64,000 nt of DNA from contig JAJCXZ010000106.1 in assembly GCA_029263175.1 (NCBI GenBank), positions 5,214-69,213 on the forward strand, in the 5' to 3' direction. A model generated the notes under the pieces. The model saw only the letters and a program-made list of their open reading frames with translations. It was not told the origin of the DNA and did not search any database. Of this stretch, positions 43,229 through 62,000 are shown in pieces. Source of the stretch: Acidimicrobiales bacterium. Lineage in GTDB: Bacteria > Actinomycetota > Acidimicrobiia > Acidimicrobiales > Aldehydirespiratoraceae. The position numbers and the translations under genes are program-made. Within the stretch, counting starts at the first letter, position 1. Each line of letters begins with the position of its first letter.

Positions 43229-43607
43229 GGCTTCCTCCCAGAAGTTGGGGTTCCTCGCCCGAGACCAGATGGTGCTGCATTTCGCCTATCGGTCTGACGG
43301 AGACGTTCTTGACCCGAGCGCCAGTTCGAGGGCCCTCAGCCTCGGCTGGCCGACACCCGACTCCCGCCGGTCGGGCAGGACCCGCCCGGATCGGTTCTTG
43401 TACCACCGAATACGGCGCGCTCACCGTCAAAGGTCCCCGTGTAGTCACCGATCGACCCGCTGCTGCACGAACAGGCCGAAGACGAGGTCGGTGTTGAAGT
43501 CGGCGATGGAGCCGTAGATGACTCCGCTGAGGATGTGAGCCCTGCAGAGCCCGAGCAGCCCAACTCCACCCCGATCTACGATGCATCCACCCGGCGGGGA
43601 GGACGAC

Positions 43608-44915
43608 ATGCAGAACGGTTATGAACCGGAGTTCATCGGCGACGGGATCAGGATTCCGCTGCCGACGTTCAACCGCAGCCTCGGCCAATCAGTGCTGCGA
43701 AAGCCAGGACTGCGGGACGGTAGGTTTTCGGATCACACCCACTTCACCCTCGTCATGAACGAGCACACCCGGCAGCTGATCTACTCCGCCTACAACATCG
43801 ACCAGTCCAAGTTCCGGCCCAAGCCGCCCGATGAGGGCAAGCGCTCGTGGAAGAAGGACAAGGTAATCGGTGAGGAGCATCAGCTCGGCAACGAGTACTA
43901 CAAGGATCGCAAGAACTCGATCGGTGAGACGGTCCCCAATCCCTACGACCGCGGCCACATGGTCATGCGCTTCAACAACATGTGGGGCGACACCAACGCC
44001 GAGTCCGACAAGGCCGGCAAGGAGACGTTCGTCTACGCCAACTCCTCTCTGCAGCACGAGAACCTGAACCGCGACGAGTGGAAGGAACTCGAGCTGAACA
44101 TCGTGCGTGACTTCCAGCACGCCGCGAACGGTCGCCTCGCCGTCTTCACCGGGCCGATCTTCGGCGATCTCGACCGCCACGTCATCCTCTCCGACCAGAA
44201 CAGTGCTCGGGTGCCGTCCGGGTTCTTCAAGGTGATCTGTTTCCGCAACACGCACGCCGTCGACGACGAACCGCTCGGTGTCCTCACCTTCGCCATCTTC
44301 CAGGACGATCAGGTGCTGCGCGACAAGTTGGGGGCGGCGACCGTCAAGACGCACCGTCCCTACCAGATCACCATCACCGAGCTCCAGAACCTGACCGGCA
44401 TCCACTTCGGGGAGGAGCTCTTCGAACGCAATCCTCTCTTCTTCTTCGACAACGAGCTGCGCAACGAAGCCGTCAACGTGCACACGGTTCCCGAGCGCAT
44501 TCCCGTCAACACCGGCGAAGATCTCATCGGCGATGCCGGCGATCGGCGCTGCGAAGTCGAGCCGCTGGCCCAGCGCCGCATCATCATCAACTCGGCAATG
44601 ATCAACCCTGAGGGGAACGAGCACCGAGGCGAATGGATCTCCCTGCACAACCGGGGCAACCGCAAGACGAGCCTGCGCAAGTGGCGGCTCGTGGACGGCC
44701 AAGGCCGGGAAGTGGTGTTGCAGCACAGCATCAACGCCGGGGAATCGCTACGCCTCAAGGGGCCCGACCGAGGCAAGATCAGACTGAGCAACGCCGGTGG
44801 CAGCCTGGTCCTCTTCGACCAGCATGACTGCATCATCGACCACGTGACCTGGTCTCGCCCCGAGGTGCGGCGCCTCGGTGATGGGGTGGCGTTCATGTTC
44901 GACCACGGCCAGTAG
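43608..44915 (+). CDS. DNA/RNA non-specific endonuclease (Endonuclease_NS) fused to a C-terminal lamin-tail domain (LTD)
   Basis: GGGGAGGA RBS before ATG 43608. Active-site block NPYDRGHMVMRFN and SSLQHENLNRDEW. LTD-like INPEGNEHRGEWISLHNRGNRKTSLRKWRLVD..GESLRL. Confidence 0.8.
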   Translation: MQNGYEPEFIGDGIRIPLPTFNRSLGQSVLRKPGLRDGRFSDHTHFTLVMNEHTRQLIYSAYNIDQSKFRPKPPDEGKRSWKKDKVIGEEHQLGNEYYKDRKNSIGETVPNPYDRGHMVMRFNNMWGDTNAESDKAGKETFVYANSSLQHENLNRDEWKELELNIVRDFQHAANGRLAVFTGPIFGDLDRHVILSDQNSARVPSGFFKVICFRNTHAVDDEPLGVLTFAIFQDDQVLRDKLGAATVKTHRPYQITITELQNLTGIHFGEELFERNPLFFFDNELRNEAVNVHTVPERIPVNTGEDLIGDAGDRRCEVEPLAQRRIIINSAMINPEGNEHRGEWISLHNRGNRKTSLRKWRLVDGQGREVVLQHSINAGESLRLKGPDRGKIRLSNAGGSLVLFDQHDCIIDHVTWSRPEVRRLGDGVAFMFDHGQ

Positions 44916-48345: not shown

Positions 48346-48987
48346 TCAGTCGAGCCAGGGTTCGTCGAGTTCCCACGGTTGCACGTTGTCGAACGACGTC
48401 TCTTTCGGCCGGCGAGGTTCGGCCATCCAGCGGGCCGCCGCGACACCGGCGATCAGGCCGAACAGATGGCCCTCCCACGAGATGAACTCCTGCGGGACGA
48501 GGCCCGCGATCATTCCGCTGTAGAAGCCGAGGGCGAGAAACGCCGGTGCGAGGGCGCGGGGCCGGCGTTCGAAAGCTGCCGCACCGAGAATGGCGCCGAG
48601 ATAGCCGAAGACGACCCCGCTCGCCCCTATGTGGTTGCTGCCACCGGCCGTCAGCCAGGTGAGGCCCCCGCCCACCACGACGGTGACCACGGTGACACGG
48701 GCCCAGTACCGCATGCCGCGGATGCTGACGAGGCCGCCGAGAGCGAGGAGAGGCACCGAGTTGGATGCCACGTGACCGAAATCGGAATGTAGGAACGGCG
48801 CCCACAGGATCCCGTCGAGTCCGTCGGCCTCGCGGGGGTGGATGCCGTTGCGCTGAAGCCGGTCGCCGAGCGCGACCGTGTCGACGATCTCGACGGCCCA
48901 GATCAGCACCAGGCCGACAACGAGCAGACCGATCGGTGTCCCCAGCAGACGCCGGTGCCACGGCACCGGCTCCTCATCCGGGGTCAT
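48346..48987 (-). CDS. Rhomboid-family intramembrane serine protease
   Basis: ATG 48987 with GAGGTGAGG RBS. WAPFLHSDFGHVASN, catalytic GASGVVFG and EGHLFGLIAG. The ORF-track extension to 49512 is Pro/Ser-rich. Confidence 0.85.
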   Translation of the reverse strand: MTPDEEPVPWHRRLLGTPIGLLVVGLVLIWAVEIVDTVALGDRLQRNGIHPREADGLDGILWAPFLHSDFGHVASNSVPLLALGGLVSIRGMRYWARVTVVTVVVGGGLTWLTAGGSNHIGASGVVFGYLGAILGAAAFERRPRALAPAFLALGFYSGMIAGLVPQEFISWEGHLFGLIAGVAAARWMAEPRRPKETSFDNVQPWELDEPWLD

Positions 48988-49144
48988 GGCCTCACCTCGT
49001 CTCCACGTCTCTCGGCTACGCGACCTTACGGGTCGCGTCGACACTGATCCGATCGGCCCGAAGTCGCAGGTTCCCAGGGCGTGGCAAGGACGCGACGGGT
49101 ACTGTCGTGATGCTGGGGGACAGCACCACCGATGGGGGGACGAA

Positions 49145-49321
49145 ATGGCCGAGAAAGGCAATGGTGAAGGCGCCGTGGATTCAGGCGGCACCGGGATGGA
49201 CAATCTCGATGAGGGGACGGGCGGTGGCACAGCCATAGCTCCCGACGAACCATGCATCATCTGTGGCGAGGCCCGCGGCGCAGCATCGCCCTGCCCGCGC
49301 TGTGGCACCACAGTCACGTGA
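49145..49321 (+). CDS. Small acidic Gly-rich zinc-ribbon peptide, paralog 1 (58 aa)
   Basis: MAEKGNGEGAVDSGGTGMDNLDEGTGGGTAIAPDEPCIICGEARGAASPCPRCGTTVT, with a CxxC-x9-CxxC motif. Confidence 0.55.
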   Translation: MAEKGNGEGAVDSGGTGMDNLDEGTGGGTAIAPDEPCIICGEARGAASPCPRCGTTVT

Positions 49322-49357
49322 TGAGGACACCGCCTAGCGGCGTACAAGGAGAGAACA

Positions 49358-49519
49358 ATGGCTGAAAAGGGAAACGGAAGCGGCTCAGGGACCGACGAAG
49401 AGGTCTGGGATCCCGGTGAAGAGGGTGGTGGTGGCCCCGCCCCGGACGCAGATCCTTGCGGTATCTGTGGTGAGCCACGAGGCGACGCGAACCCGTGCCC
49501 GCACTGCGGCATGGAGTAG
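49358..49519 (+). CDS. Small acidic Gly-rich zinc-ribbon peptide, paralog 2 (53 aa, below the ORF-track cutoff)
   Basis: My translation: MAEKGNGSGSGTDEEVWDPGEEGGGGPAPDADPCGICGEPRGDANPCPHCGME. RBS AAGGAGA. Shares MAEKGNG and PC.ICGE.RG.A.PCP.CG with paralog 1. Confidence 0.55.
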   Translation: MAEKGNGSGSGTDEEVWDPGEEGGGGPAPDADPCGICGEPRGDANPCPHCGME

Positions 49520-49528
49520 ACGAGACCG

Positions 49529-51709
49529 GTGGCCCATCCGGGCGCGCCTCTTGTCGGCGTCGAGCACGAGTTCTACCTGCGGTATCGCCAACACCGGGTT
49601 GACTTTCGACGACTGATCGATCACATCGAACTGCCGGGACGGCGGATCGATCCGTACGACCCGTTGGCGCACCGGTTGACAAACGGTCACATGATCACCG
49701 CCGATGACGCAGAAGCCGAATACGCGACTGCCCCGATCCCGATCGAGCCGGGCTTTCTCGACGAGGTCGTGCATGCGTGCGGCGTGGCCGGCTCCGCGCT
49801 GCGCAAGTCGATGCCGCGCCATATCGGGCTTGTGGGCGCCTCGACCCATGTCTCGGTGTCGTGCCCCGATCTTTACGCGAAGCGCATCTGCGAGATGATC
49901 ACCGCCCACTTCGCACCGGCCGTGATGCTGCTCGCCGAGGACGAGCGTTCGTTCGGCCTGCTCATTCGACCGCGCTATGGGCGAATCGAGTTCGGTCTCG
50001 ACTATGTGTCGGGCAAGGAGCTTCGTTCGCTCGTCGCCATGTGTGTGGCGATCGTGCTGTTCTGCGTCGAGATCCTCGATGGGGACGCCGAGGAGACCCT
50101 GCTGCCGAGCCGTCTCGAGCCCCGGTGGGAGACGGCGAATCGGCGGCCCGGCTACTACGTCCAACGGAACTCGATGGGTGGTGACCTCTACCGCGGTGGC
50201 CGTGCCACGTTGCTTCGTCGCCCCTCGGATGGCCCAGTGGAGGCGGGCGAACATCTGCAGCATGTCTGGAAAGCCGTCCGGCCCTCGCTTGCCCGCACCA
50301 CCGAGCCGTTCGAGTTCGACGCCGTCGACGATGTGGTCGCCGGGAGTCGACCCCTTCCCATGGAACGAGGCAAGAAGCTCGCCATCGTTCGCTCGCACCG
50401 CAAGCCGGCACCGAATCCGTATGCGGCGGCGATGCAGACCGTCACCCGCCCGTCGTTCACCGCCGAAGTCGTGACCCTTTCGTGGGACCTCGCCGTCTTT
50501 GCCATCGCCGGCCGGCGTCGTGTGTACGCCGTCGTCCCACGCGACGATCTCTCACGGTTCTGTGGCGATCTCGCAGACGGCGACCTGGACCAATGGGTCG
50601 AGGCCTATATCGCTCAGGATCCCTCGGGTCGCAAGGTCCCCAGCTACCCCGAAGCGGTCGCGGCGACCGCACTGTACGACACACCCAGCGCGCCGCTTCG
50701 CCTCGCCACCCCGGACCGCACCCTGGACGACCGCCTTTGGCTCGAGGACGGGTCACCACTCGATTCACCGCGGCTGTTGCCGAGGCATCCGACCGTCTGG
50801 GCCTCTGACGTCGACCCGGCGAGCGCAGGTGAACTCAAGTCTGTCACCCGTCCTCCCGACGTGACATCAGTCAGTGAGGTCGACACGGTCGACTCGTTCG
50901 ATCAGACCGAGACCAAGCCTCCGAAGCCACCCGACCCGGACGAGGGCCCGTTCGTCACGCCGCCCACCAGCCGGCCGCCGTGGATCTGGATCGCCACGAT
51001 CATCGCCCTCATCATTCTCATACTGGTTGTGGCTACCCGCGGAGGCGATTCCGGCGAGCCGCCCACGAGCACAGATCCCACAGGCACCGAGCCAACCGAC
51101 AGCACTTCGGCCGAAGAAGCTGGCTCGACCGACACGACACCAACCGTGACCGCTCCACCGGCCACTGGGCCCACGTCCACGACCGTTCAGCAGGCCGCCT
51201 GCAATGTCGCTGGAGATTCTCCGCCCAGTCCCGATACCGAGGCCATTGCGGCGGCCGCGGGCGACGTCGTGGCTCAGGCTCGCCTTGCCGGTGAGATCAC
51301 CTACACCGGCTACGCCCTCGGCTCCCACATCTTCACCATGGGTGTGGCGGGCGACGGCGAGACCGTATCGACGCTTCCCTCCACCCGCTGGTACAACCCG
51401 CGCTTCGTGGTGAACCACGACGAGTTCAATGTCCCGCTCAACGAGGAAGCGTTCACTGTGGATGTAGGTTTCAGCAACGAGGGCATCCTTGCCGCCACGA
51501 TCCTCGATGCGAACTTCGGACAGGTGCCCGATGTCGAAGCCACGGGTGCGTGGCTCGACGCGTCGACTCTCCAGGTGACGGTGAGCGGCGCGGCCATAGA
51601 TGGCGTCGAAGTCACACAACTCCGCATCGAGCTCGTTGCCCGTATCGGCGAACCAGATGGACCCACGTTGGCTGACGTCGAAGGAAACGGGTGCTGGTCG
51701 CCGGGCTAG
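49529..51709 (+). CDS. Single-pass membrane protein: N-terminal GS-like carboxylate-amine ligase (Amidoligase_2/GCS2-like) domain, TM, Thr/Pro-rich linker, extracytoplasmic C-domain
   Basis: GTG start 9 nt after peptide 2. LVGVEHEFYL, ITADDAEAEYATAPIP, GASTHVSVS and IRPRYGRIEFG occur in the order and spacing typical of GS-like amidoligases. TM: WIWIATIIALIILILVVA. Confidence 0.45.
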   Translation: MAHPGAPLVGVEHEFYLRYRQHRVDFRRLIDHIELPGRRIDPYDPLAHRLTNGHMITADDAEAEYATAPIPIEPGFLDEVVHACGVAGSALRKSMPRHIGLVGASTHVSVSCPDLYAKRICEMITAHFAPAVMLLAEDERSFGLLIRPRYGRIEFGLDYVSGKELRSLVAMCVAIVLFCVEILDGDAEETLLPSRLEPRWETANRRPGYYVQRNSMGGDLYRGGRATLLRRPSDGPVEAGEHLQHVWKAVRPSLARTTEPFEFDAVDDVVAGSRPLPMERGKKLAIVRSHRKPAPNPYAAAMQTVTRPSFTAEVVTLSWDLAVFAIAGRRRVYAVVPRDDLSRFCGDLADGDLDQWVEAYIAQDPSGRKVPSYPEAVAATALYDTPSAPLRLATPDRTLDDRLWLEDGSPLDSPRLLPRHPTVWASDVDPASAGELKSVTRPPDVTSVSEVDTVDSFDQTETKPPKPPDPDEGPFVTPPTSRPPWIWIATIIALIILILVVATRGGDSGEPPTSTDPTGTEPTDSTSAEEAGSTDTTPTVTAPPATGPTSTTVQQAACNVAGDSPPSPDTEAIAAAAGDVVAQARLAGEITYTGYALGSHIFTMGVAGDGETVSTLPSTRWYNPRFVVNHDEFNVPLNEEAFTVDVGFSNEGILAATILDANFGQVPDVEATGAWLDASTLQVTVSGAAIDGVEVTQLRIELVARIGEPDGPTLADVEGNGCWSPG

Positions 51710-51792: not shown

Positions 51793-52269
51793 GTGCTGAG
51801 GTACCTCACCATCGCGATGCTCGTGGTGTCGGTATTGGGCATCATTTTGAGCATCGTCCTGGTCGGCCGCGAGAGCCGCCTCAAGCCCAGGTTCGACGTC
51901 GCCCGCATCGTCATCATGGGCGCGGTCGCGGCAGTGATGACCTTCGCCATAGACATCACCACCCCGACCTGGGCCCTCGGGGCTGCACTCGGCGGCGGCA
52001 TCGTGATCGGCACACTCCAAGGCCGGAACCTCACCGTTCGTTCGACCGACAAGGGGTTGTACGCCCGACGGACCACCGTCGCCGTATTCGCGTTCATCGC
52101 CGGTCTTGCGGTCACGCAGGTCGCCGGCTACCTCAAGCGCACCGGGGCGATCCAGGTCGGCGTTGCCATGACCGTGCTGTCGGTTGCGGTCGCGGTCGGT
52201 CTCCTGGTCGGCCGCCAACCGAGGGTGCGAGCCGCCAAGGCTGAGGCCCAAGCTGAGGCCGTTCAGTGA
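51793..52269 (+). CDS. Four-TM membrane protein, stand-alone version of the TM module embedded in the 59037-64000 giant protein
   Basis: 158 aa. About 50 percent identity by eye: LQGRNLTVRSTDKGLYARRTTVAVFAFIAGLAVTQVAGYLKRTGAI..VGLLVGRQP versus SQGRNLVLRMGEKGPMGKRSTLAVLAFGVGLIVTQIAGLLNRSGAI..IGLIVGRRP. Confidence 0.7.
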   Translation: MLRYLTIAMLVVSVLGIILSIVLVGRESRLKPRFDVARIVIMGAVAAVMTFAIDITTPTWALGAALGGGIVIGTLQGRNLTVRSTDKGLYARRTTVAVFAFIAGLAVTQVAGYLKRTGAIQVGVAMTVLSVAVAVGLLVGRQPRVRAAKAEAQAEAVQ

Positions 52270-55200
52270 AGCGCCTCCTCAAGGTGGCCGTTGTGCTGGG
52301 CGTCCTCCTCCTGCTGTCCGGTTGCAAAGTCGAGATCGACCATTTCTTCGAAGAGGACGGGTCGTCCATCTTCCAGTTCGCGCTGGGAGCGGAGATCGAC
52401 CCGGACGAGGGCGAGTCGATCGACTGCGAGACCGAGGCCGGCGGCGAGTTCAGTGCGTCCTACGCCAACCTGAGTCAGCGCGGCAGCGAAACGTGGTGCA
52501 CCACCGGGATTCCCGTCGACTCGCCGGTCGAGCTCGCGTATCTCTACGCCTCATTCAACGAAGAAGCCGAGTTCCTACGGGTCAACTGCCTCAGCGTGGA
52601 AGACGGCCACCTGATCTACGACATCGAGGTTCTGCTCGACAGCTCCGGGGTCGAGGAGGGTGACTCGCTCGTCTGGCGGGTGACCGCTCCGGGCGCGATC
52701 ACCTCGACCAACGCCGACAGCCAATCCGGCGACACCGTGACGTGGAACCTCACCCGGCGCGACGGCTGGGTGTCTCTCGAGGTGAATGCCGACGATGGCA
52801 ACTGCCCGGCTGCGGGCTTCGCCCTCGATCTCGTCGCCGAGACCCCAACCACTGGCACGGCATTCATATCGGTGGCGAAGCCGACCACAAGCAGCGCCGA
52901 TGCCGACGCTCTCGTCGCTGCTCTCAGCCGCGCCGGCTGGCAGGTCACCGACCAGGGCAGCGAGATCGATGCCAGCCAGACATGGGCCGACGAAGCCGGA
53001 CTCCAGACCATCGCCGATGGTCTTGCCCCGATCACCGGCAGCGATCTCACCGTCGCCGACCTCAGCGAAACCGACGGCGACGGCAACAGCGAGTTCGAAG
53101 CCCGACTCGATCTCTCGTTCTACGAAGCCTTCTGGCAGGGCATCAACCCTGCCATCGACGATCCGCCGTTCCGGTTCTCGTGGACACCGCCCCCCGGCGA
53201 CGCCGAGTCAACCGGCGACTGGACGGTGCCGGACGCCCGCACGTTCAGCTGGGCTGTCTCTGATGCGGGCCGCATCTTCAACATGGCGACCAGGGTCACC
53301 CCCACCGAAGCCGAGGACGAGGGCGAGATCATTGTCGGCGACGAATCCGAGGGTGACGGATCAGACGACGGCGGCGACGACCCGGACGACGCCGGTGATG
53401 GCACCTCCGATGCTCCCGGTGACGCCGATGACACGGCGGCCGAACAAGCTGCGACCGACGTATTGGTTGATCAAGTCGCCGGCGACGACGCCGACGATGC
53501 AACCCGGGCCGCGACAGCTGCAGCCATAGCAGCACTGCTGGGTGCGGCGGGCCTGACCGCGGTTTCCATGGCGGAGGCGGGCCTGTCGTTGGCCGACGTA
53601 GCCGACGCAGTCCGGCATGGTGATCTCGACCGCCTCTCGAGCTCGCCCCCCGAAGATGAGCCGGTGCCCGACGGCGGTATTCGTATCTGGGACCAGGCCG
53701 CGGGGCGGGCCCAGGTGTTCGACAGTTGGGCCGACGCCGACCGATTCACGGCAGAGCTGCGCGCCCGCGAGCAAGGAGGGTTCCTCCGCGACACCGCCGA
53801 TGCCATGGACCGGAGTCGGGCTCAAGGGGCGGCCGCCGACGCCGCCGAACTGGCAGACATTCGAGCCGACCGAGCAGCCATCGACTACTGGACCCAGCTC
53901 GTTCAGGCCCGAGAAGAAGCCCTGGAGCGTTTGGAGGCAGCCGAAGCGCAACAGGCTGCGATAGCCGACGAAGGCTGGCAGGAAGTCATCGACGACGCGT
54001 TCGACGGAATCGTCCGTGAAGTCGATGCGCTCCCCGGCGAGATCCGCGACGCGGCATGGGCCACCCGCCAAGCACTCGATGCGGTGGCGGCGGCCATCGC
54101 CGATCCCGACAACTACGACCTCCAGGTCCTCGCCGAAACCGGACTCGAGACCATCTACGACGTGCTCGGCATGATGTCCGGCGGCGCCTACGGCGACGGA
54201 TTCGAGAGTGCGCTGGCACCGGTCAAGACCGTGGCCCGCGTCGGCGGTGCCCTCGGCCAGATGGCCTGGAACGACAAGGGCGCGTTCTTCGAGATGATCA
54301 CGCCGATTGGTGACCTCAAGGACTCGATGGACCCCGACAAGACGCTGGGTCAGCGCCTCGGGCACATGGGCTTCGCTCTCGCCGACATCTTCGGCACCGT
54401 TGCCGGCTTTGGGCTCGCCGACGAAGCCATGGAGCTGGGCCGACTCGCCGGGGCCACCGACGATGCGCGCCACGCCGTCGACGCGCTCGACGCGGCTCGC
54501 AAAACCGAACGGGCAACCGACGCCGTCCAGGCCGCTCGCAATGTCGAACGCACCACCGATTTGCTCGATACATCACGCGACATGGACCGGGCGTCCGACG
54601 CAGTCCAGGCGGCCCGCGATGCCGAGAAGGCCACCGAGGCAGCGGAGGCGTCTCTCTTGGCGAGCAGGGCCGACGAGCTCGTCGAGTCGCAGCGGGTGGC
54701 CGAGACGCTCAACCCGAGCAAATACAACGAGGCCACTGTCGCGGCTCGGCGTGAGGCATGGGACCAGGTTCAGAAGGAAGGCGCGGAGGCGGTCGCCGAT
54801 TTCAAGAAGCTGCCCGCCGACGATCTCGCCCGTCGTGAAGCGGCCCTGCGAGTGCAAGGCAACAAGCAGGCGCTGATGGAAATGAAGGACAACGGCCGCG
54901 TCAGCGAAGAACTCCAGGTCGCGTTCAACAACGAGATGCGCGGGATCTACAACGAGACCGACGACAAGGTCATCGATTGGCTGCTCGACCCCAAGACCCG
55001 CCCCGACGGTGTTCCCGAGCTCACGCCGCCCTTGAACGAGGTGCTCGACCCCAACGGTCGGATCACCCACGTCATCGACGCGGACGGAAACTCGATACGA
55101 CTCTTCGAGCCCACGAACGCCAACCCCGACATCGTGTCGGTCGGGGCCGACCGTGACTTCACGGTCTATGTAACGGGCGCGGATGGAGTCGAGAGGGCCG

Positions 55201-55886
55201 TGCCCAGCGGCCAGGTCGAATCCGTCTACAACCAGGCCTTCTACGAAGCGTCCGGCGGCGACGACATGGCTCGTTCGCTGGGCATCGAGCCCGACGCCGA
55301 CGCGTTCGCGACCCGGATGGACCAGGCGATCACCGACGACGTCCATCCCGAGTCGTACAAGAACGTCGAGACGGTCATTGGTGCACCCGGCAAGGAGATC
55401 GGTGACGTTCAACAGGTCGGTCAAGCGTCCGCATACAAGCACGATCACTGGCAGGCACGGGCGGCGGAGTCCAGCGAGAAGGCGGCGGCCGCAGCCGAAG
55501 CGGGCGACGACGCAGCTGCCGCGGCATGGGCGGCAAGGGCTGAGGACGAACACTTCGAGGCAACTCGCCAGCTGGTGAAACAGAACGGCAATCAGGTGGT
55601 GAACCGGCATGCGGCGCTCGCCGCCCAGGTCGAGGAAGCAAAACAGCTGGGCACGCTGGCACCCGACTTCGAACTCAACGCGCTTCCCGACGACCTGCAG
55701 CGGGCGATGGCCTTCATGAACGACTCCAAGACGGTGGGCATGGCGCCCGTCGATGTCGAGATGCAGATGCTGGCCGAGCTGGGGATGACGCCCACCGATG
55801 CGGCACAACGCATGGGCGGCTACCTCGAGTCGATGGAGAAGTTGCGACCGCAGGCCATCATCGATCTACAGCGAGGCCTGCCGTGA
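52266..55886 (+). CDS. Large lipoprotein, polymorphic-toxin-like (locus A), with variable C-terminal domain of unknown function
   Basis: GTGA overlap with the 4-TM gene. Lipobox MKRLLKVAVVLGVLLLLSGC. D/G-rich linker. Hydrophobic AAIAALLGAAGLTAVSMA. The central region is collinear with the locus B protein, including ITPIGDLKDSMDPDKTLGQRL (pre-toxin-TG-like). DA.R helical repeats. Unique last ~390 aa. Confidence 0.75.
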   Translation: MKRLLKVAVVLGVLLLLSGCKVEIDHFFEEDGSSIFQFALGAEIDPDEGESIDCETEAGGEFSASYANLSQRGSETWCTTGIPVDSPVELAYLYASFNEEAEFLRVNCLSVEDGHLIYDIEVLLDSSGVEEGDSLVWRVTAPGAITSTNADSQSGDTVTWNLTRRDGWVSLEVNADDGNCPAAGFALDLVAETPTTGTAFISVAKPTTSSADADALVAALSRAGWQVTDQGSEIDASQTWADEAGLQTIADGLAPITGSDLTVADLSETDGDGNSEFEARLDLSFYEAFWQGINPAIDDPPFRFSWTPPPGDAESTGDWTVPDARTFSWAVSDAGRIFNMATRVTPTEAEDEGEIIVGDESEGDGSDDGGDDPDDAGDGTSDAPGDADDTAAEQAATDVLVDQVAGDDADDATRAATAAAIAALLGAAGLTAVSMAEAGLSLADVADAVRHGDLDRLSSSPPEDEPVPDGGIRIWDQAAGRAQVFDSWADADRFTAELRAREQGGFLRDTADAMDRSRAQGAAADAAELADIRADRAAIDYWTQLVQAREEALERLEAAEAQQAAIADEGWQEVIDDAFDGIVREVDALPGEIRDAAWATRQALDAVAAAIADPDNYDLQVLAETGLETIYDVLGMMSGGAYGDGFESALAPVKTVARVGGALGQMAWNDKGAFFEMITPIGDLKDSMDPDKTLGQRLGHMGFALADIFGTVAGFGLADEAMELGRLAGATDDARHAVDALDAARKTERATDAVQAARNVERTTDLLDTSRDMDRASDAVQAARDAEKATEAAEASLLASRADELVESQRVAETLNPSKYNEATVAARREAWDQVQKEGAEAVADFKKLPADDLARREAALRVQGNKQALMEMKDNGRVSEELQVAFNNEMRGIYNETDDKVIDWLLDPKTRPDGVPELTPPLNEVLDPNGRITHVIDADGNSIRLFEPTNANPDIVSVGADRDFTVYVTGADGVERAVPSGQVESVYNQAFYEASGGDDMARSLGIEPDADAFATRMDQAITDDVHPESYKNVETVIGAPGKEIGDVQQVGQASAYKHDHWQARAAESSEKAAAAAEAGDDAAAAAWAARAEDEHFEATRQLVKQNGNQVVNRHAALAAQVEEAKQLGTLAPDFELNALPDDLQRAMAFMNDSKTVGMAPVDVEMQMLAELGMTPTDAAQRMGGYLESMEKLRPQAIIDLQRGLP

Positions 55887-57514
55887 GCTGGGTCGTGCTC
55901 GACCCATCACCGCAGGTGGCGGCCGCGCTTGCGTTGCCGGACTCGGTTCCCGTGCGCCAGGAACAGCTTGCCGCGATCACGGGCGACGGTCGGATGGACC
56001 TCGGCGCCCTCGCCGACGAACTCCATTACGTCTGCGGCGAGGCGCCGGAGATGGTGCCCGTCCTCGGGGCCGGTATCGCCAAAACCTCGTTCTTCGCCGC
56101 GGGAGACGCCCTCGCCGCTCATGACTTCGCGCGGGCCGAGCTCCACGCCACCACCGGACTGTCGTATCGGCCCGACGACGAACCACTTCGAATGCTGCTC
56201 TCCCACGCCCTGCACGGCCAGGGTCGCCACGATGCCGCCATCGTCCACGGCGACATGGTGGTCGCGAAGGCGCGAGGCGAGGGGCGGATGTCGCCGGCGT
56301 TCTGGCTGACCCATGCTCGAGCGCTGGACGAAGCGGGCCGGTCCGCTGATGCCCTGCCCTTGCTCGAAGATCTCACACCGATGTGGTCCGGACGTGAAGA
56401 CTTCCTCGCCCTGGCCGCTCACATCCGCCGGCGGGCCGCGGAAACACCACCGGCGGAGCCGGCCTCCACACCGGAGACGGCGTCCACACCGGAGACAGGG
56501 TCACGTCGTAGGCGAGCCCCGATGCTCCTGGTGCTCCTGCTGCTGGTCGCGGGTGGCGCTGCAGCCGGCTACTTCCTCTTCGTGACCGATGACGAGGCGC
56601 CCACCGACACGGCTCTACCCTCCGATTCGACCACCGTCGTCCCGACAACAACCTCGCCACCGACCACCGCGGCACCAACCACTACGCCACCGACCACGGG
56701 TGCACCAACAACCGCCGCCCCGACCACAATTCCGACCGTCGTCGTGCCGCCTGTCGCAGGCACGTCGCAGGCAGACGCGACGGCAGCACTCGAAGCCCTT
56801 GGGCTCTCGGTCGAAGCTGTGACAGTCGAGGCCTACGATGCCGGCGTCGGGCAGGTCATCTCGATCGAACCGGCCGCGGGAGCGGAACTCCGCGCTGGTG
56901 ATGTTGTTGTCTTGACCGTGGCGGCGAGGCCGACGGAATGCAACGACGCCCCGGCCGAGATCCCCGCTACTCCATTCGAAGATCTCGCCGGACTCAACGA
57001 CGTGACCCGGGCTGCGATCGATTGGGCCACCGCCGTCGGCCTCGTCAGTCCCGGCACCGCGTTCAACCCGACGCAGCCCATGACCCGCGGTGCGGCCGTG
57101 ACTGTGCTGTGGCGCTACATGTGCGAGCCCGCCGCTACCGACACCCCCGTCGTCTTTGACGACGTGGACCCCGGTGCGTTCTATGCCAAGCCGGTCGCTT
57201 GGGCCACAACTGAAGGTGTCATGGGAGGCACCACGCCGAGCACCATGAGCCCCGACGACTCGATCACTCGTGCGGCGTTCGTCACCATCCTGTGGCGAGC
57301 CCTGGGCGAGCCGACGAGCGACGCCGAGTTGCCATTCGAGGATGTTGATCCGGGTGCTTTCTACGCCGCTTCGTTGCGCTGGGCCTTCGGCGAAGGCCTC
57401 GTTTCAGGAACGACGGCGACCACCTTTGCGCCGAACGAACCGATCGATCGGATCACCACCATCCTCTTGTTCGACCGCACCGAACGGGGCATCGATCCCC
57501 TCGTCGGCGGCTGA
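55883..57514 (+). CDS. Cognate partner (locus A): N-terminal helical-repeat domain + TM + Pro/Thr linker + PASTA + three SLH domains
   Basis: GTGA overlap with the toxin-like gene. The N-domain (DLGALADELHYV...HDFARAELHATTGL..HGQGRHDAAIV) resembles the 58459-59040 protein. TM LLVLLLLVAGGAAAGYFLFV. PASTA VVVPPVAGTSQADATAALEALGLSVE..GDVVVLTV. SLH x3 (FEDLAGLN.., FDDVDPGAFYAKPVAWA.., FEDVDPGAFYAASLRWA..). Confidence 0.7.
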   Translation: MSWVVLDPSPQVAAALALPDSVPVRQEQLAAITGDGRMDLGALADELHYVCGEAPEMVPVLGAGIAKTSFFAAGDALAAHDFARAELHATTGLSYRPDDEPLRMLLSHALHGQGRHDAAIVHGDMVVAKARGEGRMSPAFWLTHARALDEAGRSADALPLLEDLTPMWSGREDFLALAAHIRRRAAETPPAEPASTPETASTPETGSRRRRAPMLLVLLLLVAGGAAAGYFLFVTDDEAPTDTALPSDSTTVVPTTTSPPTTAAPTTTPPTTGAPTTAAPTTIPTVVVPPVAGTSQADATAALEALGLSVEAVTVEAYDAGVGQVISIEPAAGAELRAGDVVVLTVAARPTECNDAPAEIPATPFEDLAGLNDVTRAAIDWATAVGLVSPGTAFNPTQPMTRGAAVTVLWRYMCEPAATDTPVVFDDVDPGAFYAKPVAWATTEGVMGGTTPSTMSPDDSITRAAFVTILWRALGEPTSDAELPFEDVDPGAFYAASLRWAFGEGLVSGTTATTFAPNEPIDRITTILLFDRTERGIDPLVGG

Positions 57515-58458: not shown

Positions 58459-59040
58459 CTACTCGGCCGAGTCAACTCTCGCCAGGAGGCGGGTCAGTGC
58501 TTCTGGCTCGCGCTCCCACGTGCCACGCAGCGGCTCGGCGAGTCGGCGCGCCAGAAGCGGTCGTTCTGCCTCTATCGCGCTCCGCACGGCGAGCACTCGC
58601 AGGCCGGTGGCAACGCCGTGGCTGTCGCCTTCGAGCACTTCCATGTACCCGACCAGTGCATCATCGTGACGCTCGACGCGGGCCTGGGCGATCGAGCGGG
58701 CGGCCACACACTCGAGATCCTGAGGTGCCCACGCCGTGGCCATCGTGGCCAGCCGTAACGCCTCGTCGAATCGGCCCTCGCGATCAGCGATGCGCGACGC
58801 GAACAGCGCCACGCGGGCGAGCGTCGGCGCCTGGTGATACACGGCTTCGCGCCGCGTCTCGGCCGCAAGCACCGCATCGGCCTCATCGGCCAGCGCGGCC
58901 AGATCGACCTTGCCCTCGTCATCCACGACACGACCCGCAGCGGACGAGGAGACGACGAGACGGCGAGCCGGCAGACCCATGCCCTGGGCCAGGGTGCGGT
59001 CGATCTCGATTGCGACGAACCGATCGGCAGCAGCGTTCAT
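58459..59040 (-). CDS. Cognate partner (locus B): soluble helical-repeat (TPR-like) protein, putative immunity/chaperone
   Basis: ATGA overlap with the upstream giant gene. VDLAALADEADAVL...ARVALFASRIADREGRFDEALRLAT.. is similar in layout to the N-domain of the 55883 protein. Confidence 0.6.
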   Translation of the reverse strand: MNAAADRFVAIEIDRTLAQGMGLPARRLVVSSSAAGRVVDDEGKVDLAALADEADAVLAAETRREAVYHQAPTLARVALFASRIADREGRFDEALRLATMATAWAPQDLECVAARSIAQARVERHDDALVGYMEVLEGDSHGVATGLRVLAVRSAIEAERPLLARRLAEPLRGTWEREPEALTRLLARVDSAE

Positions 59041-62000
59041 GATTGGCTCAACCTCGGTAGCTCGTCGAGGCGAGGGCCTCGGCGCAGGACGCCATCGCTG
59101 CCGATCTGAAGGATCATCTCCGCCCCCGACAAATGGGCGTCCTCCAGCGACTCGTGGAGCTTGATCGCCTTCTGATATGCCTCATGCCATTCCGGCGAGC
59201 CGGGTGTGTGCCCCCTGGTGAGGTAGTTGATGACGTCGGTCTCGGGGCCATGCTCAATGCCGGCGCCGCTCTTCTTCAGGTCCTCCATCACCTCGAGGAA
59301 CTTCTCGCCGGAGAGATGGGTGCCATCGGGATTGCGGAGATACACGAGGTCGATATCACCTGCGTACGGGATCTCTCTGCCGCTTTCGCCGACCTGGAAC
59401 AGCATGCCGTTGCGTTCCACGACCTCGCCCCGTAGCACCATGCCGTCGACGTCGCCGCGCAGCTTGTAGTACTCCTCCAAGCGCTGGGCATAGCGTTGCT
59501 GCACCGCCGACTGCAGCTCGGTGGGTACGTTGCGCATGTTGGGCTCGGTCGGGCGGAAATAGCCCACCAGCCCCTCGTCGGCCCGGTTGGCACCGATGTA
59601 GGTGTCGAGGTTGTTGATGGTCTTCGACTTGATGTTCACCGGCTTCGGCACCGCCTTACCGTCGCGAATCCAGTGCATCGAATCCGGATTGGTCGACCGT
59701 GAACCGATCTGGATGTCGTACTTGTTGGCGATGGCGGCGAGTTCGTCGACCTGGGCCTGGCTGTAGCCGACCTCGTGCATGACGTTGCGTTCGATCGCCG
59801 CGCCTTCCGGCAGATTGTCCACCCAGCCGGGTGGCGGCGGCGCGAGATCGTCGGCCACGCGCCCTGCGTCCGCGGCGAGGTCGGCTACCCGGCGCGCTTC
59901 GGTCGCCTCGGCCAACCGACGAGCATTGGCGGCAGCATCCGTTGCCCGGCGCGCGTCCTCGGCGGCTTCGGCCGCCCGGCGGGTATCTCCGGCTGCATCT
60001 GCCGCTCGACGCGCATCTTCGGCGGCTTGGGCTACACGTTCGGCGTCGGCGGCCGCATCGGCAGCCCGCCGTGCGTCGGCCGCAGCATCGGCAGCCCGTC
60101 TTGCGTCGGCCGCGGCTTCGGTCGCTCGCCGTGCGTCCGCGGCTGCGTCGACGGCGCGTAGCGCGTCGACACCTTCGTCCACGTAGCCCGAGCCGAACAT
60201 GAGAGCCTCTGCCGCGAAGGCGGCAAAGTGCTGCATCCGATCATGCAGCGGCAGATCTGGATCCATCGACGCAATGAGCTGGTCGATCCCGGTGAGCGCC
60301 TGCACGATCGCGCCGGCGTTGTCTCGCGCCAACGCGCCGACCGTGGCGATCGTGTCGGCGGCCTGCACGAAATGGTCATACGTCTCCGGGTCTCCGGTTA
60401 CCGAACCGATGAACACGTCGTAGGCCGTGTCCCGCATCGTGTCCCACAGAATTGTGCCCGCGTCTGGATGACTCGCTGCCTCCGCCACGGCATCGAGGGC
60501 GCCGCGCAGCGCGATGCCGATGGTGCGGGTGGTCTCATAGATGCCCTCACCCATGAGGAGGACGGCGTTCTCGTCATCGAGCCGGGTCAGAGCGACGATG
60601 TCGTCCCAGATGCGATCGTTGAACGTGGACGCCACCTCCGCCACCCAGTTGACGGGGTTGTCCCAATAGGTCTGATCGCGGGCAGCTTGCCCGAGGTCCA
60701 AAGCGTCGATGCGCGCCGCGATCTCGTCGTAGCGGTCCTGGGCCCGGCCGAGATCCTCGACCCGTTGCCAGCCGTCACGGATCTCCTGCATCAGCGCGTC
60801 GTGCTCGACCTGGCTTCGGCCCGCGAGGCCGGCGAAGCGCTCAGCCGCGGCCTCGTCGCTCTTGCCCTCGTCGATGATCGATTGCGCCCGCCGATCGCGG
60901 TCCCTGTTCGCATCGCGCTGATCGGCGATGAGTTCTTCGAGTTCGGAGCGCGGCACGCGTCTTCCGCCCCAGTCGTAGAGCCCGTCCTCGCCGGGCAACA
61001 TCGGCTGACCGCGCTCGTCCATCACTGTCACTGCGGCCTCGGCATCGGCCTCTTCGCGCAGCGCGTCGGCCAGGCCGCGTAGTCCGCCGTTGCGGAACGC
61101 ATCGGCCAGTTCCTGGGCCGACATTCCCGCGTCAGCCAATCCGGCCGCCAGCAATCCCGCCGCACCCATGGCCCCGACGAGTGCGGCGATCGCCGCGGCT
61201 CGGGTCTCGTCATCGGCACCCTCGGGTACGAACAGATCGATGGTGTCGGCATCCACGCCGAGCGCTTCGGCCTGATCCTCCAACAGGTCGGCCTCGGTCG
61301 GTGCGGCCGCCGTGGTGGGGACCGGATCCGGCTCGGGCAGGCCAACCTCCCCGAGCAGTTCGGTGGGGCCTGACCAATTCGGGCCCTGCCGGCGCCACGA
61401 TTCGATCAGCGCCGGGATCCGCGGGTCGCTCGGATCGCAGTGATGGCACCGGGCCCTGATCGACCCCCAGCTGAACACGCCGCGGATCGACACGTTGGGT
61501 CCGTCCGCCGTCGCCGTGTCGGTGAAGATGAAGATCTGGCCATCGGCGAGGTCGTAGTTGCTGATCGAGGTGCACTGTTCCTGGTCGGCCCGGTTGACCG
61601 AGACACCGTTCGCATCAACGTCGCAGCGATCGGCCTCGGGAATCTCGTGGGGCTGGAACCGTGTTGTCATCCCGTCGCGTGCGTTCCACTGTTGGTTCAC
61701 ATACGTCGCCGCGTCAGACGACGCAAGGTCGTAGTTGACCTCCATCCGGGTGGCGCCGCGGGCATCGCTGCCGTAGACCATCCCCGATGTGCAGTTGGTG
61801 GAGTGGGGGTCGATGTAGAGCTTGGTGATCGTGTCGGCGTCTACGTCGCCGGGCTGCCAGCTGCCGTCGTCCATACCGGCGACCACGTTCTGATATGGCG
61901 CACATGACCCCGCCGGCGCCTCCGGCGGTGGGGGAGCGGCGGCGAGCGCCTCGTCGATCGTGAACCCGTCGATGTCGCAGTCGACCACCACGTCGGCGAG

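Follow-up and report, generated by a model that had tools for sequence, protein, structure and literature searches.

GS-fold ligases paired with small EK(G)N-motif proteins in Actinomycetota and Chloroflexota: a probable undescribed system of small-protein modification

Introduction

To our knowledge, pupylation has so far been the only pairing of a ligase that has the fold of glutamine synthetase (GS) with a dedicated small protein. In that system the GS-fold ligase PafA activates the gamma-carboxylate of a Glu in Pup, a small disordered protein (PMC2588565). Membrane-anchored Pup ligases, which have a 4-TM insert, were noted in two lineages by Iyer et al. (PMC2588565). For other GS-fold families that were new in that work, among them Rv2566-type transglutaminase fusions and the ‘new CAL’ family, the same authors state explicitly that no small conserved ORF lies nearby; linkage in these families is instead to genes of amidotransferases or cyclotransferases (Iyer et al., 2008; PMC2588565). 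YbdK, a member of the GCS2 type (PF04107), is a soluble small-molecule ligase, likewise without a linked small ORF. The ligases of graspetide and microviridin biosynthesis also form amides or esters in an ATP-dependent manner on Glu, Asp and Lys side chains of ribosomal peptides, and their precursors can hold several core motifs, but they have an ATP-grasp fold that is unrelated to the GS fold.

Here we describe a cassette in an Acidimicrobiales bacterium that comprises two small-protein genes and the gene of a membrane-anchored GS-fold ligase, found in a window of 64,000 nucleotides (the whole stretch of DNA that was analysed). We take the cassette to be a probable, hitherto undescribed system for the chemical modification or conjugation of small proteins, because an enzyme with the fold of GS and Pup ligases, together with an unnamed small partner, recurs in both Actinomycetota and Chloroflexota.

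Organization of the cassette

The three genes are encoded on the forward strand in the order pep1 (49145..49321; 58 aa, MAEKGNGEGAVDSGGTGMDNLDEGTGGGTAIAPDEPCIICGEARGAASPCPRCGTTVT), pep2 (49358..49519; 53 aa, MAEKGNGSGSGTDEEVWDPGEEGGGGPAPDADPCGICGEPRGDANPCPHCGME) and a 726-aa ligase ORF (49529..51709), whose GTG start lies 9 nt past the pep2 stop. Both coordinates and sequences agree with the earlier note on this DNA, which had described two tandem paralogous peptides followed closely by a ligase. Pep1 starts with a MAEKGN motif, continues with a linker rich in Gly, Asp and Glu, and carries in its C-terminal part a zinc ribbon of the form CxxC-x9-CxxC. Its paralogue pep2 repeats this plan, with MAEKGN, an acidic, Gly-containing linker and the zinc ribbon PCGICGEPRGDANPCPHCGME. 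The E-K-G-N motif occupies residues 3-6 of both peptides (49151..49162 in pep1 and 49364..49375 in pep2). The zinc-ribbon cysteines, located by inspection, are C37, C40, C50 and C53 of pep1 (49253..49303) and C34, C37, C47 and C50 of pep2 (49457..49507). Purine-rich sites resembling Shine-Dalgarno sequences (GGGGGGA and AAGGAGA) are found 5′ of both peptides. Rfam, promoter and terminator scans of the region at 48-52.5 kb returned nothing above chance.

The ligase can be divided into five parts, all on the forward strand. Residues 1-295 (49529..50413) form the putative cytoplasmic GS-fold carboxylate-amine ligase core, as delimited by AlphaFold, Foldseek and conservation in 137 sequences. Next, at residues 296-400 (50414..50728), comes a beta3-alpha2 subdomain, modelled with AlphaFold, that is particular to this family and has a tail that is conserved; W319 is invariant. 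It is succeeded by a Pro/Asp/Ser-rich linker at residues 401-484 (50729..50980), which is unconserved in the homologue alignment. A single TM helix, WIWIATIIALIILILVVA, is predicted from hydrophobicity at residues 485-502 (50981..51034), and the 224 aa after it (51035..51706) form a variable, presumably extracytoplasmic region with a Thr/Pro-rich stalk and a domain of ~170 aa. A TM helix followed by a C-terminal part had also been proposed from the initial reading of the sequence.

The ligase domain

An AlphaFold model of ligase residues 1-356 had a pTM of 0.85 and a pLDDT of 80.3, and all 16 of its Foldseek matches in the PDB at E <= 0.001 were GS-fold ligases. The overall GS-type fold is that of a curved antiparallel sheet against which helices pack. 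The top matches were structures of YbdK (1tt4 and 1r8g) and Dop (5lrt, 7oxv and 7oyh), with E-values from 7e-8 to 4e-6 and TMq of 0.48-0.57. Next came gamma-glutamylmethylamide synthetase and then glutamine synthetases, including the GS-GlnR peptide complex 7tf6. On this modelled structure, the N-terminal domain is of the GS-fold carboxylate-amine ligase type, as had been suggested before, and the catalytic residues of the superfamily are conserved in it. Rv2566-type transglutaminase fusions and the ‘new CAL’ family belong to the same superfamily by fold and signature.

Conservation was compared against the superfamily signature of Iyer et al. (2008; PMC2588565). The GhExE motif of strand 1 falls within the predicted strand at residues 8-19, with G10 and E12 each conserved in 136/137 sequences and E14 in all 137. 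Acidic residues follow on strands 2 and 3 (predicted at 55-59 and 62-66), namely D59 in 136/137 and E64 in 137/137 sequences; the equivalence of these strands, and hence of D59 and E64 with Mg2+/ATP-contacting positions, was assigned by their order and without residue-level superposition. For the [HD]x[NH] motif of strand 4, H107 is found in 136/137 sequences; 115 sequences have Ser at the third position and 22 have Asn, so that the canonical form is in the minority. The signature next has an Arg on strand 5 and another Arg before it; here an Arg cluster comprises R147 (135/137), R149 and R152 (137/137 each), with E154 equally invariant (137/137). The strand-6 motif takes the form Ex3[ED] and not Ex[RK]x2D, with an acidic residue at +4 (E/D158, 134/137) and no R/K at +2. 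Key positions of the core are G10/E12/E14, G53, D59, E64, S105-T106-H107-x-S109, R147/R149/R152/E154/D158, R206, R213, D219 and R225. The stretches GVEHEF, DDAEAEYATAP, THVSVS and RIEF, first picked out from the sequence alone as ordered ligase motifs, were located at residues 10-15, 59-69, 106-111 and 152-155, respectively. Judged by model and alignment, the ligase domain looks catalytically intact and ATP-dependent.

At the level of sequence, the family stands apart from the characterised ligases. The 726-aa ORF had no Pfam match at E <= 10, with the PF12224, PF04107 and PafA/Dop models included, and none in NCBIfam; the membership in one of these Pfam families that had been put forward for checking did not materialise. 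Searches of PDB sequences with phmmer and hmmsearch recovered only noise or low-complexity TM matches, and neither PafA nor Dop. Family profiles built from 5 and from 137 sequences did not align significantly with E. coli YbdK in hhalign (probability 0.2), and only the GhExE and STH/GTH (G-x-(S/G)-T-H) motifs lined up. Alignment with M. tuberculosis PafA, which serves as a lead only, was also not significant (probability 0.9). Since there is no significant sequence similarity to characterised ligases, substrate chemistry is not transferable from a relative.

The comparison with the Pup ligases is one of shared fold (Dop, E ~1e-7) and shared residues, including GhExE, the acidic pair on the next strands, the strand-4 His and the Arg cluster. 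Both systems are present in Actinomycetota and have a linked partner that is small, acidic and of low complexity. The new family shows no Pfam- or HMM-level similarity to PafA and Dop and no linkage to the proteasome or Mpa, and it is also widespread in Chloroflexota. Its single C-terminal TM helix and ectodomain also differ from the membrane insert of the anchored Pup ligases. YbdK gave the best Foldseek E-values (1tt4, 6.7e-8; 1r8g, 4.3e-7; TM ~0.49 both ways) and has a domain of similar size, but the beta3-alpha2 subdomain, TM helix and ectodomain of the new family set the two apart.

Family size and spread

With a cut-off of E <= 1e-3, HMMER retrieved 870 family representatives (clusters at 50% identity), of which 519 also passed E <= 1e-30. 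The family is widespread in Actinomycetota and Chloroflexota. In its usual architecture the ligase domain is followed by a single TM helix and an ectodomain that varies. A Kyte-Doolittle window scan found a hydrophobic segment in 113 of the 151 representatives listed, and among 40 inspected it was usually placed at about residues 410-500. The C-terminal region after the TM helix is unconserved among homologues, and the ectodomain types recognised in the 46 members scanned (TIG, fn3, Big_9 and cadherin-like) each occurred in single members. One subfamily is permuted, with the beta3-alpha2 subdomain N-terminal to GhExE (L044, L055, P0056 and P0118).

All ten relatives looked up were annotated as ‘hypothetical protein’ or had no name. 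PADLOC at E <= 0.01 gave no match for the ligase, pep1, pep2 or two downstream proteins. No description of the family was found in the literature searched; the amidoligase survey that Iyer et al. published in 2009 may mention it. As far as its sequences tell, the ligase family is a separate and unnamed one.

Small partner proteins

Several observations bear on whether pep1 and pep2 are real. The blocks common to both comprise 26 codons, 9 of them identical, 12 with a synonymous difference and 5 with a non-synonymous one, and within AEKGNG all six codons differ synonymously. Peptides like pep1 and pep2 are present in no fewer than 31 further protein clusters; a profile of the zinc-ribbon class of pep2 matched 33 clusters at E <= 1, and P0163 is a close relative of pep1. 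Pep1 and pep2 are, on these coding patterns, genuine genes and not chance ORFs. The conservation that the earlier note anticipated for them is borne out by these clusters, by the excess of synonymous divergence and by their recurrence beside the ligase. Synonymous changes are free in the motif both between pep1 and pep2 and across loci, a pattern of purifying selection on the partner small ORFs at the protein level.

The feature shared across the family is the N-terminal motif, (M)[G/A]EK[G/A/E] or EK(G)N. In 45 partner peptides its Glu is invariant (45/45) and its Lys nearly so (43/45, with Arg in 2), followed by Gly in 29/45 and Asn in 25/45; Asn is the commonest residue at this +3 position, with T, I, S and others in the remaining 20. 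The motif normally stands at the extreme N terminus, as M-[G/A]-E-K-[G/A/E]-x, and it is repeatedly found in tandem or in duplicate (L004, L011, L015, L021, L031 and L034). Outside it, the partners are highly diverse and reach 208 aa in length. Of the other features noted earlier, the acidic Gly-rich stretch is not family-wide, and the zinc ribbon and the C-terminal Glu are confined to the subclass to which pep1 and pep2 belong.

In this subclass the cysteines of the two CxxC knuckles, which in zinc-ribbon small proteins are expected about 9-15 residues apart, are invariant in the alignment, and metal binding is predicted. Against Pfam, both peptides had only sub-threshold matches, with zf-FPG_IleRS as the sole match of pep1 (16.1 bits, cut-off 21.3) and Zn_ribbon_3 for pep2 (E 0.0042, 17 bits, cut-off 27). 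An MGEKGP sequence in a 1640-aa ORF on the minus strand was rejected as a further motif carrier. It belongs to a loop inside a TM module, and we regard the match as chance because a paralogue of this ORF shows TDKG there.

Gene linkage

Small ORFs starting with M[GA]?E[KR][GAET] were found within 2 kb upstream of the ligase in 47 of 60 loci, against a chance expectation of 0.07 per 2 kb derived from control sequence. In 39 of the 47 the small ORF is on the same strand, and in 8 there is a divergent one only. Three further loci have EKGN motifs at internal positions, together with a zinc ribbon, and in 8 of the 60 no recognisable partner peptide was found. Linkage also holds in the reverse direction, as each of the four EKGN peptides with a zinc ribbon that were followed on long contigs directly precedes a ligase ORF (E 1e-111 to 1e-137). 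The co-occurrence of peptides and ligase proposed earlier is thereby extended to other genomes.

When the ORFs of 61 loci and of the window were clustered all against all, no other conserved neighbour emerged: the recurrent clusters were the ligase, its antisense shadow ORFs and small-ORF subclasses only. The amidotransferase and cyclotransferase genes that accompany other GS-fold families are thus absent here. A rhomboid, a GNAT protein, a 158-aa TM protein and a 1206-aa lipoprotein of the window are not recurrent and were rejected as cassette members. The tie to a downstream ‘toxin locus’ that had been drawn for this window is likewise not upheld, the small ORF being the only neighbour that recurs across the 61 loci. 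Peptide genes and ligase gene form a self-contained cassette.

Proposed function and alternative explanations

Given a GS fold and conserved small ORFs that are linked in both directions, peptide modification or small-protein conjugation is the leading hypothesis. Fold, linkage and conserved motif favour the tagging or modification role first proposed for this locus, but not in the version that relied on a Pup-like C-terminal Glu. In our best overall explanation, on which our confidence is evenly poised, the ligase recognises the EKGN motif and probably activates its Glu for amide formation. The ligase would be a type-II membrane protein with an N-terminal catalytic region of ~360 aa in the cytoplasm, where the small proteins, acidic, of low complexity and defined by their E-K-G-N-type motif, would also reside. 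The motif would dock on the ligase, ATP would phosphorylate the gamma-carboxylate of the invariant Glu, and an amine would resolve the acyl-phosphate to an isopeptide or amide. Candidate amines are the epsilon-amine of a protein Lys, which might belong to a further copy of the motif, or else a small amine or a lipid amine at the membrane. The outcome would be a small protein that is post-translationally modified or conjugated and sits at the membrane's inner face, and the ectodomain, much as in receptor kinases, may position or regulate the enzyme. Against this explanation, the motif might serve in docking or regulation instead of being the modified site, and the diversity of the peptides beyond the motif is unlike a universal tag. 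The variant strand-4 (HxS) and strand-6 motifs and the loci without a recognisable partner also count against it.

The small protein could, though this seems unlikely, be a regulator or scaffold. Its EKGN motif would then plug or tune the active site of a ligase whose product is a small-molecule amide, for instance a gamma-glutamyl compound. Glutamine synthetase is acted on in such a manner by IF7/IF17, inactivating factors of cyanobacteria, and by the tail of GlnR. The GS-GlnR peptide complex 7tf6 is among the Foldseek matches. YbdK, a small-molecule ligase, is structurally as good a match as Dop, the peptide bodies are highly variable, and metabolites are, as Iyer et al. argue, the products of most GS-fold families (PMC2588565). 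A regulator is harder to reconcile with the tight 1:1 linkage, with duplication of the motif within peptides, with the lack of conserved metabolic neighbour genes, and with an invariant motif Glu that is the canonical carboxylate substrate of the superfamily.

We consider it improbable that the cassette performs Pup-like tagging, in which a C-terminal Glu or Asp (or Gln after deamidation) is activated and the whole zinc-ribbon peptide joined to target lysines. Structurally, Dop ranks with the closest matches, pep2 ends in Glu, and the C termini of the zinc-ribbon class, typically CGM[D/E/Q], are D/E in 21 and Q in 2 of 31 other peptides. The likeness to Pup goes no further than this: pep1 ends in TTVT, 8/31 zinc-ribbon peptides end otherwise, and the non-zinc-ribbon classes have no conserved acidic C terminus. 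The GG[QE] tail of Pup is absent, the conserved neighbourhood includes neither a proteasome nor an Mpa-type gene, and the putative tag has a body that is unconserved across taxa.

A RiPP-like biosynthesis is slightly less probable again. Here the GEK motif would be a leader, and downstream cores would be modified and released as a natural product; the NLNxSKSNI repeats of Chloroflexota peptides or the zinc-ribbon segment are candidate cores. Core-like repeats are found in Dehalococcoidia and Anaerolineae partners, tandem precursor genes in the window, L011 and L015, and the extra small subdomain of the ligase could bind a leader. This subdomain was modelled with a pLDDT of 90.6 but had no fold match in the PDB by Foldseek (best E 0.78), neither to RRE/PqqD nor to another fold, so that its identity as a leader-binding RRE is unsupported. 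Unlike graspetide and microviridin loci, the 61 loci show no conserved leader protease or transporter, nor a further tailoring gene, and the partners are up to 208 aa long, some classes with an apparently structured C-terminal module such as the zinc ribbon.

Least probable is a Dop-like amidase or deamidase that converts the motif Asn to Asp or removes a modification, for although Dop gave the highest TMq (0.57), shares a common active site with PafA (PMC7947786) and would suit the prevalence of Asn at +3, that Asn is variable, no second paralogue is linked to serve as ligase, and hydrolysis is exceptional in the superfamily.

Implications

The cassette would be a second pairing of a GS-fold ligase with a small protein, and a much more diverse one, with sequence clusters that number in the hundreds and come from two major phyla. 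We tentatively propose a Pup-independent pathway of GS-fold small-protein modification or conjugation, in which a receptor-like ligase that spans the membrane covalently modifies the motif Glu of EK(G)N proteins and may join them to lysines or membrane amines under the possible control of its ectodomain; in this full form the proposal is possible, with the balance of probability against it. The recognition motif has only four residues and is easily tested, and the TM architecture suggests a coupling to the cell surface. If modification of the Glu holds true, the compact pair of enzyme and tag could serve as a ligation tool, and the family would represent a new post-translational modification system.

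Organization of the locus

The 726-aa ligase ORF (49529–51709, +; GTG start) is directly preceded on the same strand by genes for two paralogous small proteins, pep1 (58 aa, 49145–49321) and pep2 (53 aa, 49358–49519), each with a purine-rich Shine-Dalgarno-like sequence in front, and it begins 9 nt past the pep2 stop. Both small proteins start with MAEKGNG, continue with a Gly/Asp/Glu-rich stretch and carry a C-terminal CxxC-x9-CxxC zinc ribbon. Their shared blocks comprise 26 codons (9 identical, 12 with synonymous and 5 with non-synonymous differences), and AEKGNG differs synonymously at all six codons; since the differences are mostly synonymous, the likeness has been kept at the protein level. 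The pair heads a divergent intergenic region, across from which lie rhomboid (48346–48990, −) and GNAT genes. Around the locus, an Rfam scan gave no match and a promoter/terminator scan no pattern above chance. Pep2 and the ligase share one reading frame, with TAG plus three codons between them (49517–49531), and read-through of the pep2 stop would yield a fusion. This layout is not conserved: the two genes are in different frames in L003, a ligase-family locus of another genome.

Downstream of the ligase, a 158-aa multi-TM protein (51793–52269, +) is followed by 1206-aa and 543-aa ORFs (52266–57514, +). The three probably form one operon, as they are joined by 4-nt overlaps (52266–52269 and 55883–55886). 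The 1206-aa protein, whose N terminus resembles that of a lipoprotein (…LLLLSGC), lacks Pfam domains, and the 543-aa protein has TPR, PASTA and SLH domains. The 158-aa protein has a paralogue in an internal TM module (~residues 370–470) of a 1640-aa ORF (59037–63959, −), with matching stretches ...QGRNLTVRSTDKGLYARRTTVAVFAF... and ...QGRNLVLRMGEKGPMGKRSTLAVLAF...; the window's two large-protein loci are thereby linked. Neighbour clustering found none of the three ORFs conserved beside the ligase in other loci. Further upstream, 43581–44915 (+) encodes a protein with Endonuclease_NS (non-specific DNA/RNA endonuclease) and lamin-tail domains.

Fold and active site of the ligase

No Pfam, NCBIfam or PADLOC model matched the ligase, and PDB sequences showed no meaningful match to it or to family profiles. 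The earlier note had proposed a glutamine synthetase (GS)-like fold for the N-domain, and structure prediction bore this out: an AlphaFold model of residues 1–356 from a five-sequence alignment reached pLDDT 80.3 and pTM 0.85, and all 16 of its Foldseek matches in the PDB at E ≤ 0.001 were GS-fold ligases. These comprised YbdK (1tt4, 6.7e-8; 1r8g, 4.3e-7) and Dop (5lrt, 7oxv, 7oxy, 7oyh, 7oy3 and 9cku; 1.3e-7 to 5e-5, TMq ≤ 0.57), followed by a gamma-glutamylmethylamide synthetase and then glutamine synthetases.

The superfamily's active-site signature (Iyer et al., 2008; PMC2588565) was scored over 137 family sequences. GhExE (G10 and E12 in 136/137, E14 in 137/137), the acidic pair (D59 in 136/137, E64 in 137/137) and the Arg cluster with its Glu (R147 in 135/137; R149, R152 and E154 in 137/137) are present. 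Two elements are variant, namely the strand-4 motif [HD]x[NH] (H107 in 136/137; Ser in 115 and Asn in 22 at the third position) and the strand-6 acidic pair Ex[RK]x2D, here Ex3[E/D] without R/K at +2. R206, G208, R213, D219, R225 and W319 are also invariant or nearly so. The N-domain looks like an active enzyme rather than a degenerate domain. The family profile gave no significant match to either E. coli YbdK or PafA; judged by sequence, the ligase is a family of its own, apart from both.

Residues 296–400 make up a beta3-alpha2 unit whose tail is conserved (AlphaFold pLDDT 90.6). Foldseek matched it to no fold in the PDB (best E 0.78); its identification as a RiPP recognition element was unsupported by Foldseek. 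One subfamily is circularly permuted, with this unit N-terminal to GhExE instead of after the catalytic core and with the pattern …TWD..VF.V…LD.G.LD…; examples are L044 (Knoellia; 3713–4060), L055 (3749–4060) and the cluster representatives P0056 and P0118. A partner gene starting MGEKGI is divergently transcribed in L040–L042 and L055.

Extent and topology of the ligase family

A word-indexed search recovered four relatives only (36–40% identity). An exhaustive HMMER search with the 362-position N-domain profile gave 870 representatives at E ≤ 1e-3, one per 50%-identity cluster, of which 519 reach E ≤ 1e-30, and most listed matches covered nearly the whole profile. Ten members looked up were named 'hypothetical protein' or not at all. 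A Kyte-Doolittle window scan found a hydrophobic segment in 113 of the 151 listed representatives, usually ~410–500 residues in among 40 of them; the window ligase has its TM helix at residues 485–502. The C-terminal part is not conserved across the family, with TIG, fn3, Big_9 or cadherin-like domains in single members each among 46 scanned. The conserved hydrophobic segment and a variable C-terminal part with such domains imply an N-in/C-out type-II topology, in which the enzyme domain would be cytoplasmic.

Small partner proteins

The association of small ORFs with the ligase, which the earlier note had drawn from one locus, recurs in other genomes. Each of the four homologues recovered first is directly preceded by a small ORF, which starts MGEKGN and lacks a zinc ribbon in three of them and has both a zinc ribbon and two EKGNA motifs in the fourth. 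Scanning GTDB species genomes added 57 loci (by record title, 35 Actinomycetota, 21 Chloroflexota and one labelled Myxococcales). Among 60 usable loci, 39 have, in the 2 kb upstream, a same-strand ORF of 25–260 aa that begins with M[GA]?E[KR][GAET], and 8 have only a divergently transcribed one; control sequence of the same loci contains 0.07 motif-start ORFs per 2 kb. In three others a zinc ribbon accompanies an internal EKGN motif, one has a MERGN ORF adjoining a masked stretch, one an upstream ORF ending in the EKGN motif, and 8 no recognisable partner. Tandem peptide genes also occur in L011 and L015. In all-against-all clustering of neighbours only the partner small ORF was conserved, so the cassette consists of small protein(s) and ligase alone.

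Across 45 partner peptides the motif reads E (45/45), K (43; R in 2), G (29; E 11, A 4) and N (25; T 7, I 6), its Glu being residue 3 in 36 and residue 2 in 5, and its codons differ freely between loci. Outside it, the peptides are acidic and of low complexity (16% D/E, 9% K/R, 49% G/A/S/T/P) and form unrelated classes, none with a Pfam match: zinc ribbon, helical-looking by sequence (e.g., ...ETLRGKLVEGAAEG... and ...DALPLDVLKGSPET...), Trp-rich, and, in Chloroflexota, a class containing NLNxSKSNI repeats. Dehalococcoidia and Anaerolineae partners start MGEKET and carry 2–7 repeats of ~11 aa, NLN(L/S)SKSNI(D/N)R or INNSHSNIKNL (L023, 3292–3918; L038, 3413–3877; L047, 3240–3812; L056, L058, L059 and L061), which may serve as multiple sites of modification or recognition.

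A zinc-ribbon profile search at E ≤ 1 gave 33 clusters, two of them pep1 and pep2; in 30 of the other 31, an E[KR] motif, in most cases E[KR]GN, precedes PCxxCGEPRGDxxPCPHCGM[D/E]. In the reverse direction, a ligase-family ORF (HMM E 1e-111 to 1e-137) directly follows the peptide in 4/4 cases traced on long contigs, one of them without a gene call. At L063, a 920-aa ligase ORF (4133–6892) straight after a zinc-ribbon peptide is missing from the public gene calls; the MAG carries a Xanthomonadales label, and the neighbouring DUF4235 gene and transposase, together with the cassette itself, suggest mis-binning or horizontal transfer. The ribbon loop is nearly always CGEPRGD (30 clusters; e.g., window 49472–49486) and thus contains an RGD tripeptide, which is probably structural though strikingly conserved.

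Interpretation and relation to known systems

It is firmly supported that the ligase is GS-fold and catalytically intact-looking, that it is membrane-anchored, and that it is in obligate genetic partnership with small proteins having in common only a short motif with an invariant Glu. Enzymes of the superfamily use ATP to activate a carboxylate, usually a Glu gamma-carboxylate, which an amine then attacks (PMC2588565). In the most economical model, the motif Glu would be the carboxylate activated by the ligase, and the small protein would then be amidated or isopeptide-linked at the membrane. A Pup-like C-terminal route is a rival for the zinc-ribbon class only, where the last residue of 31 peptides is D/E in 21, Q in 2 and another in 8; Pup, with PafA/Dop, is the closest analogue of the cassette in logic, but it has a GG[QE] tail and proteasome linkage, and the window cassette has neither. 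The peptide might instead regulate a metabolite ligase or be a RiPP precursor. A Dop-like amidase is a further rival. In structure, YbdK and Dop are closest to the ligase; profile-based tests place it in none of the named families.

GS-fold families other than the Pup ligases lack linked small ORFs (Iyer et al., 2008), which makes the pairing of ligase and small ORF unusual. Our literature search, with the 2009 amidoligase survey outside its scope, found no description of this ligase/peptide family. We classify the GS-fold ligase superfamily as the known part of the system, and the family and its type of partner as the new part.
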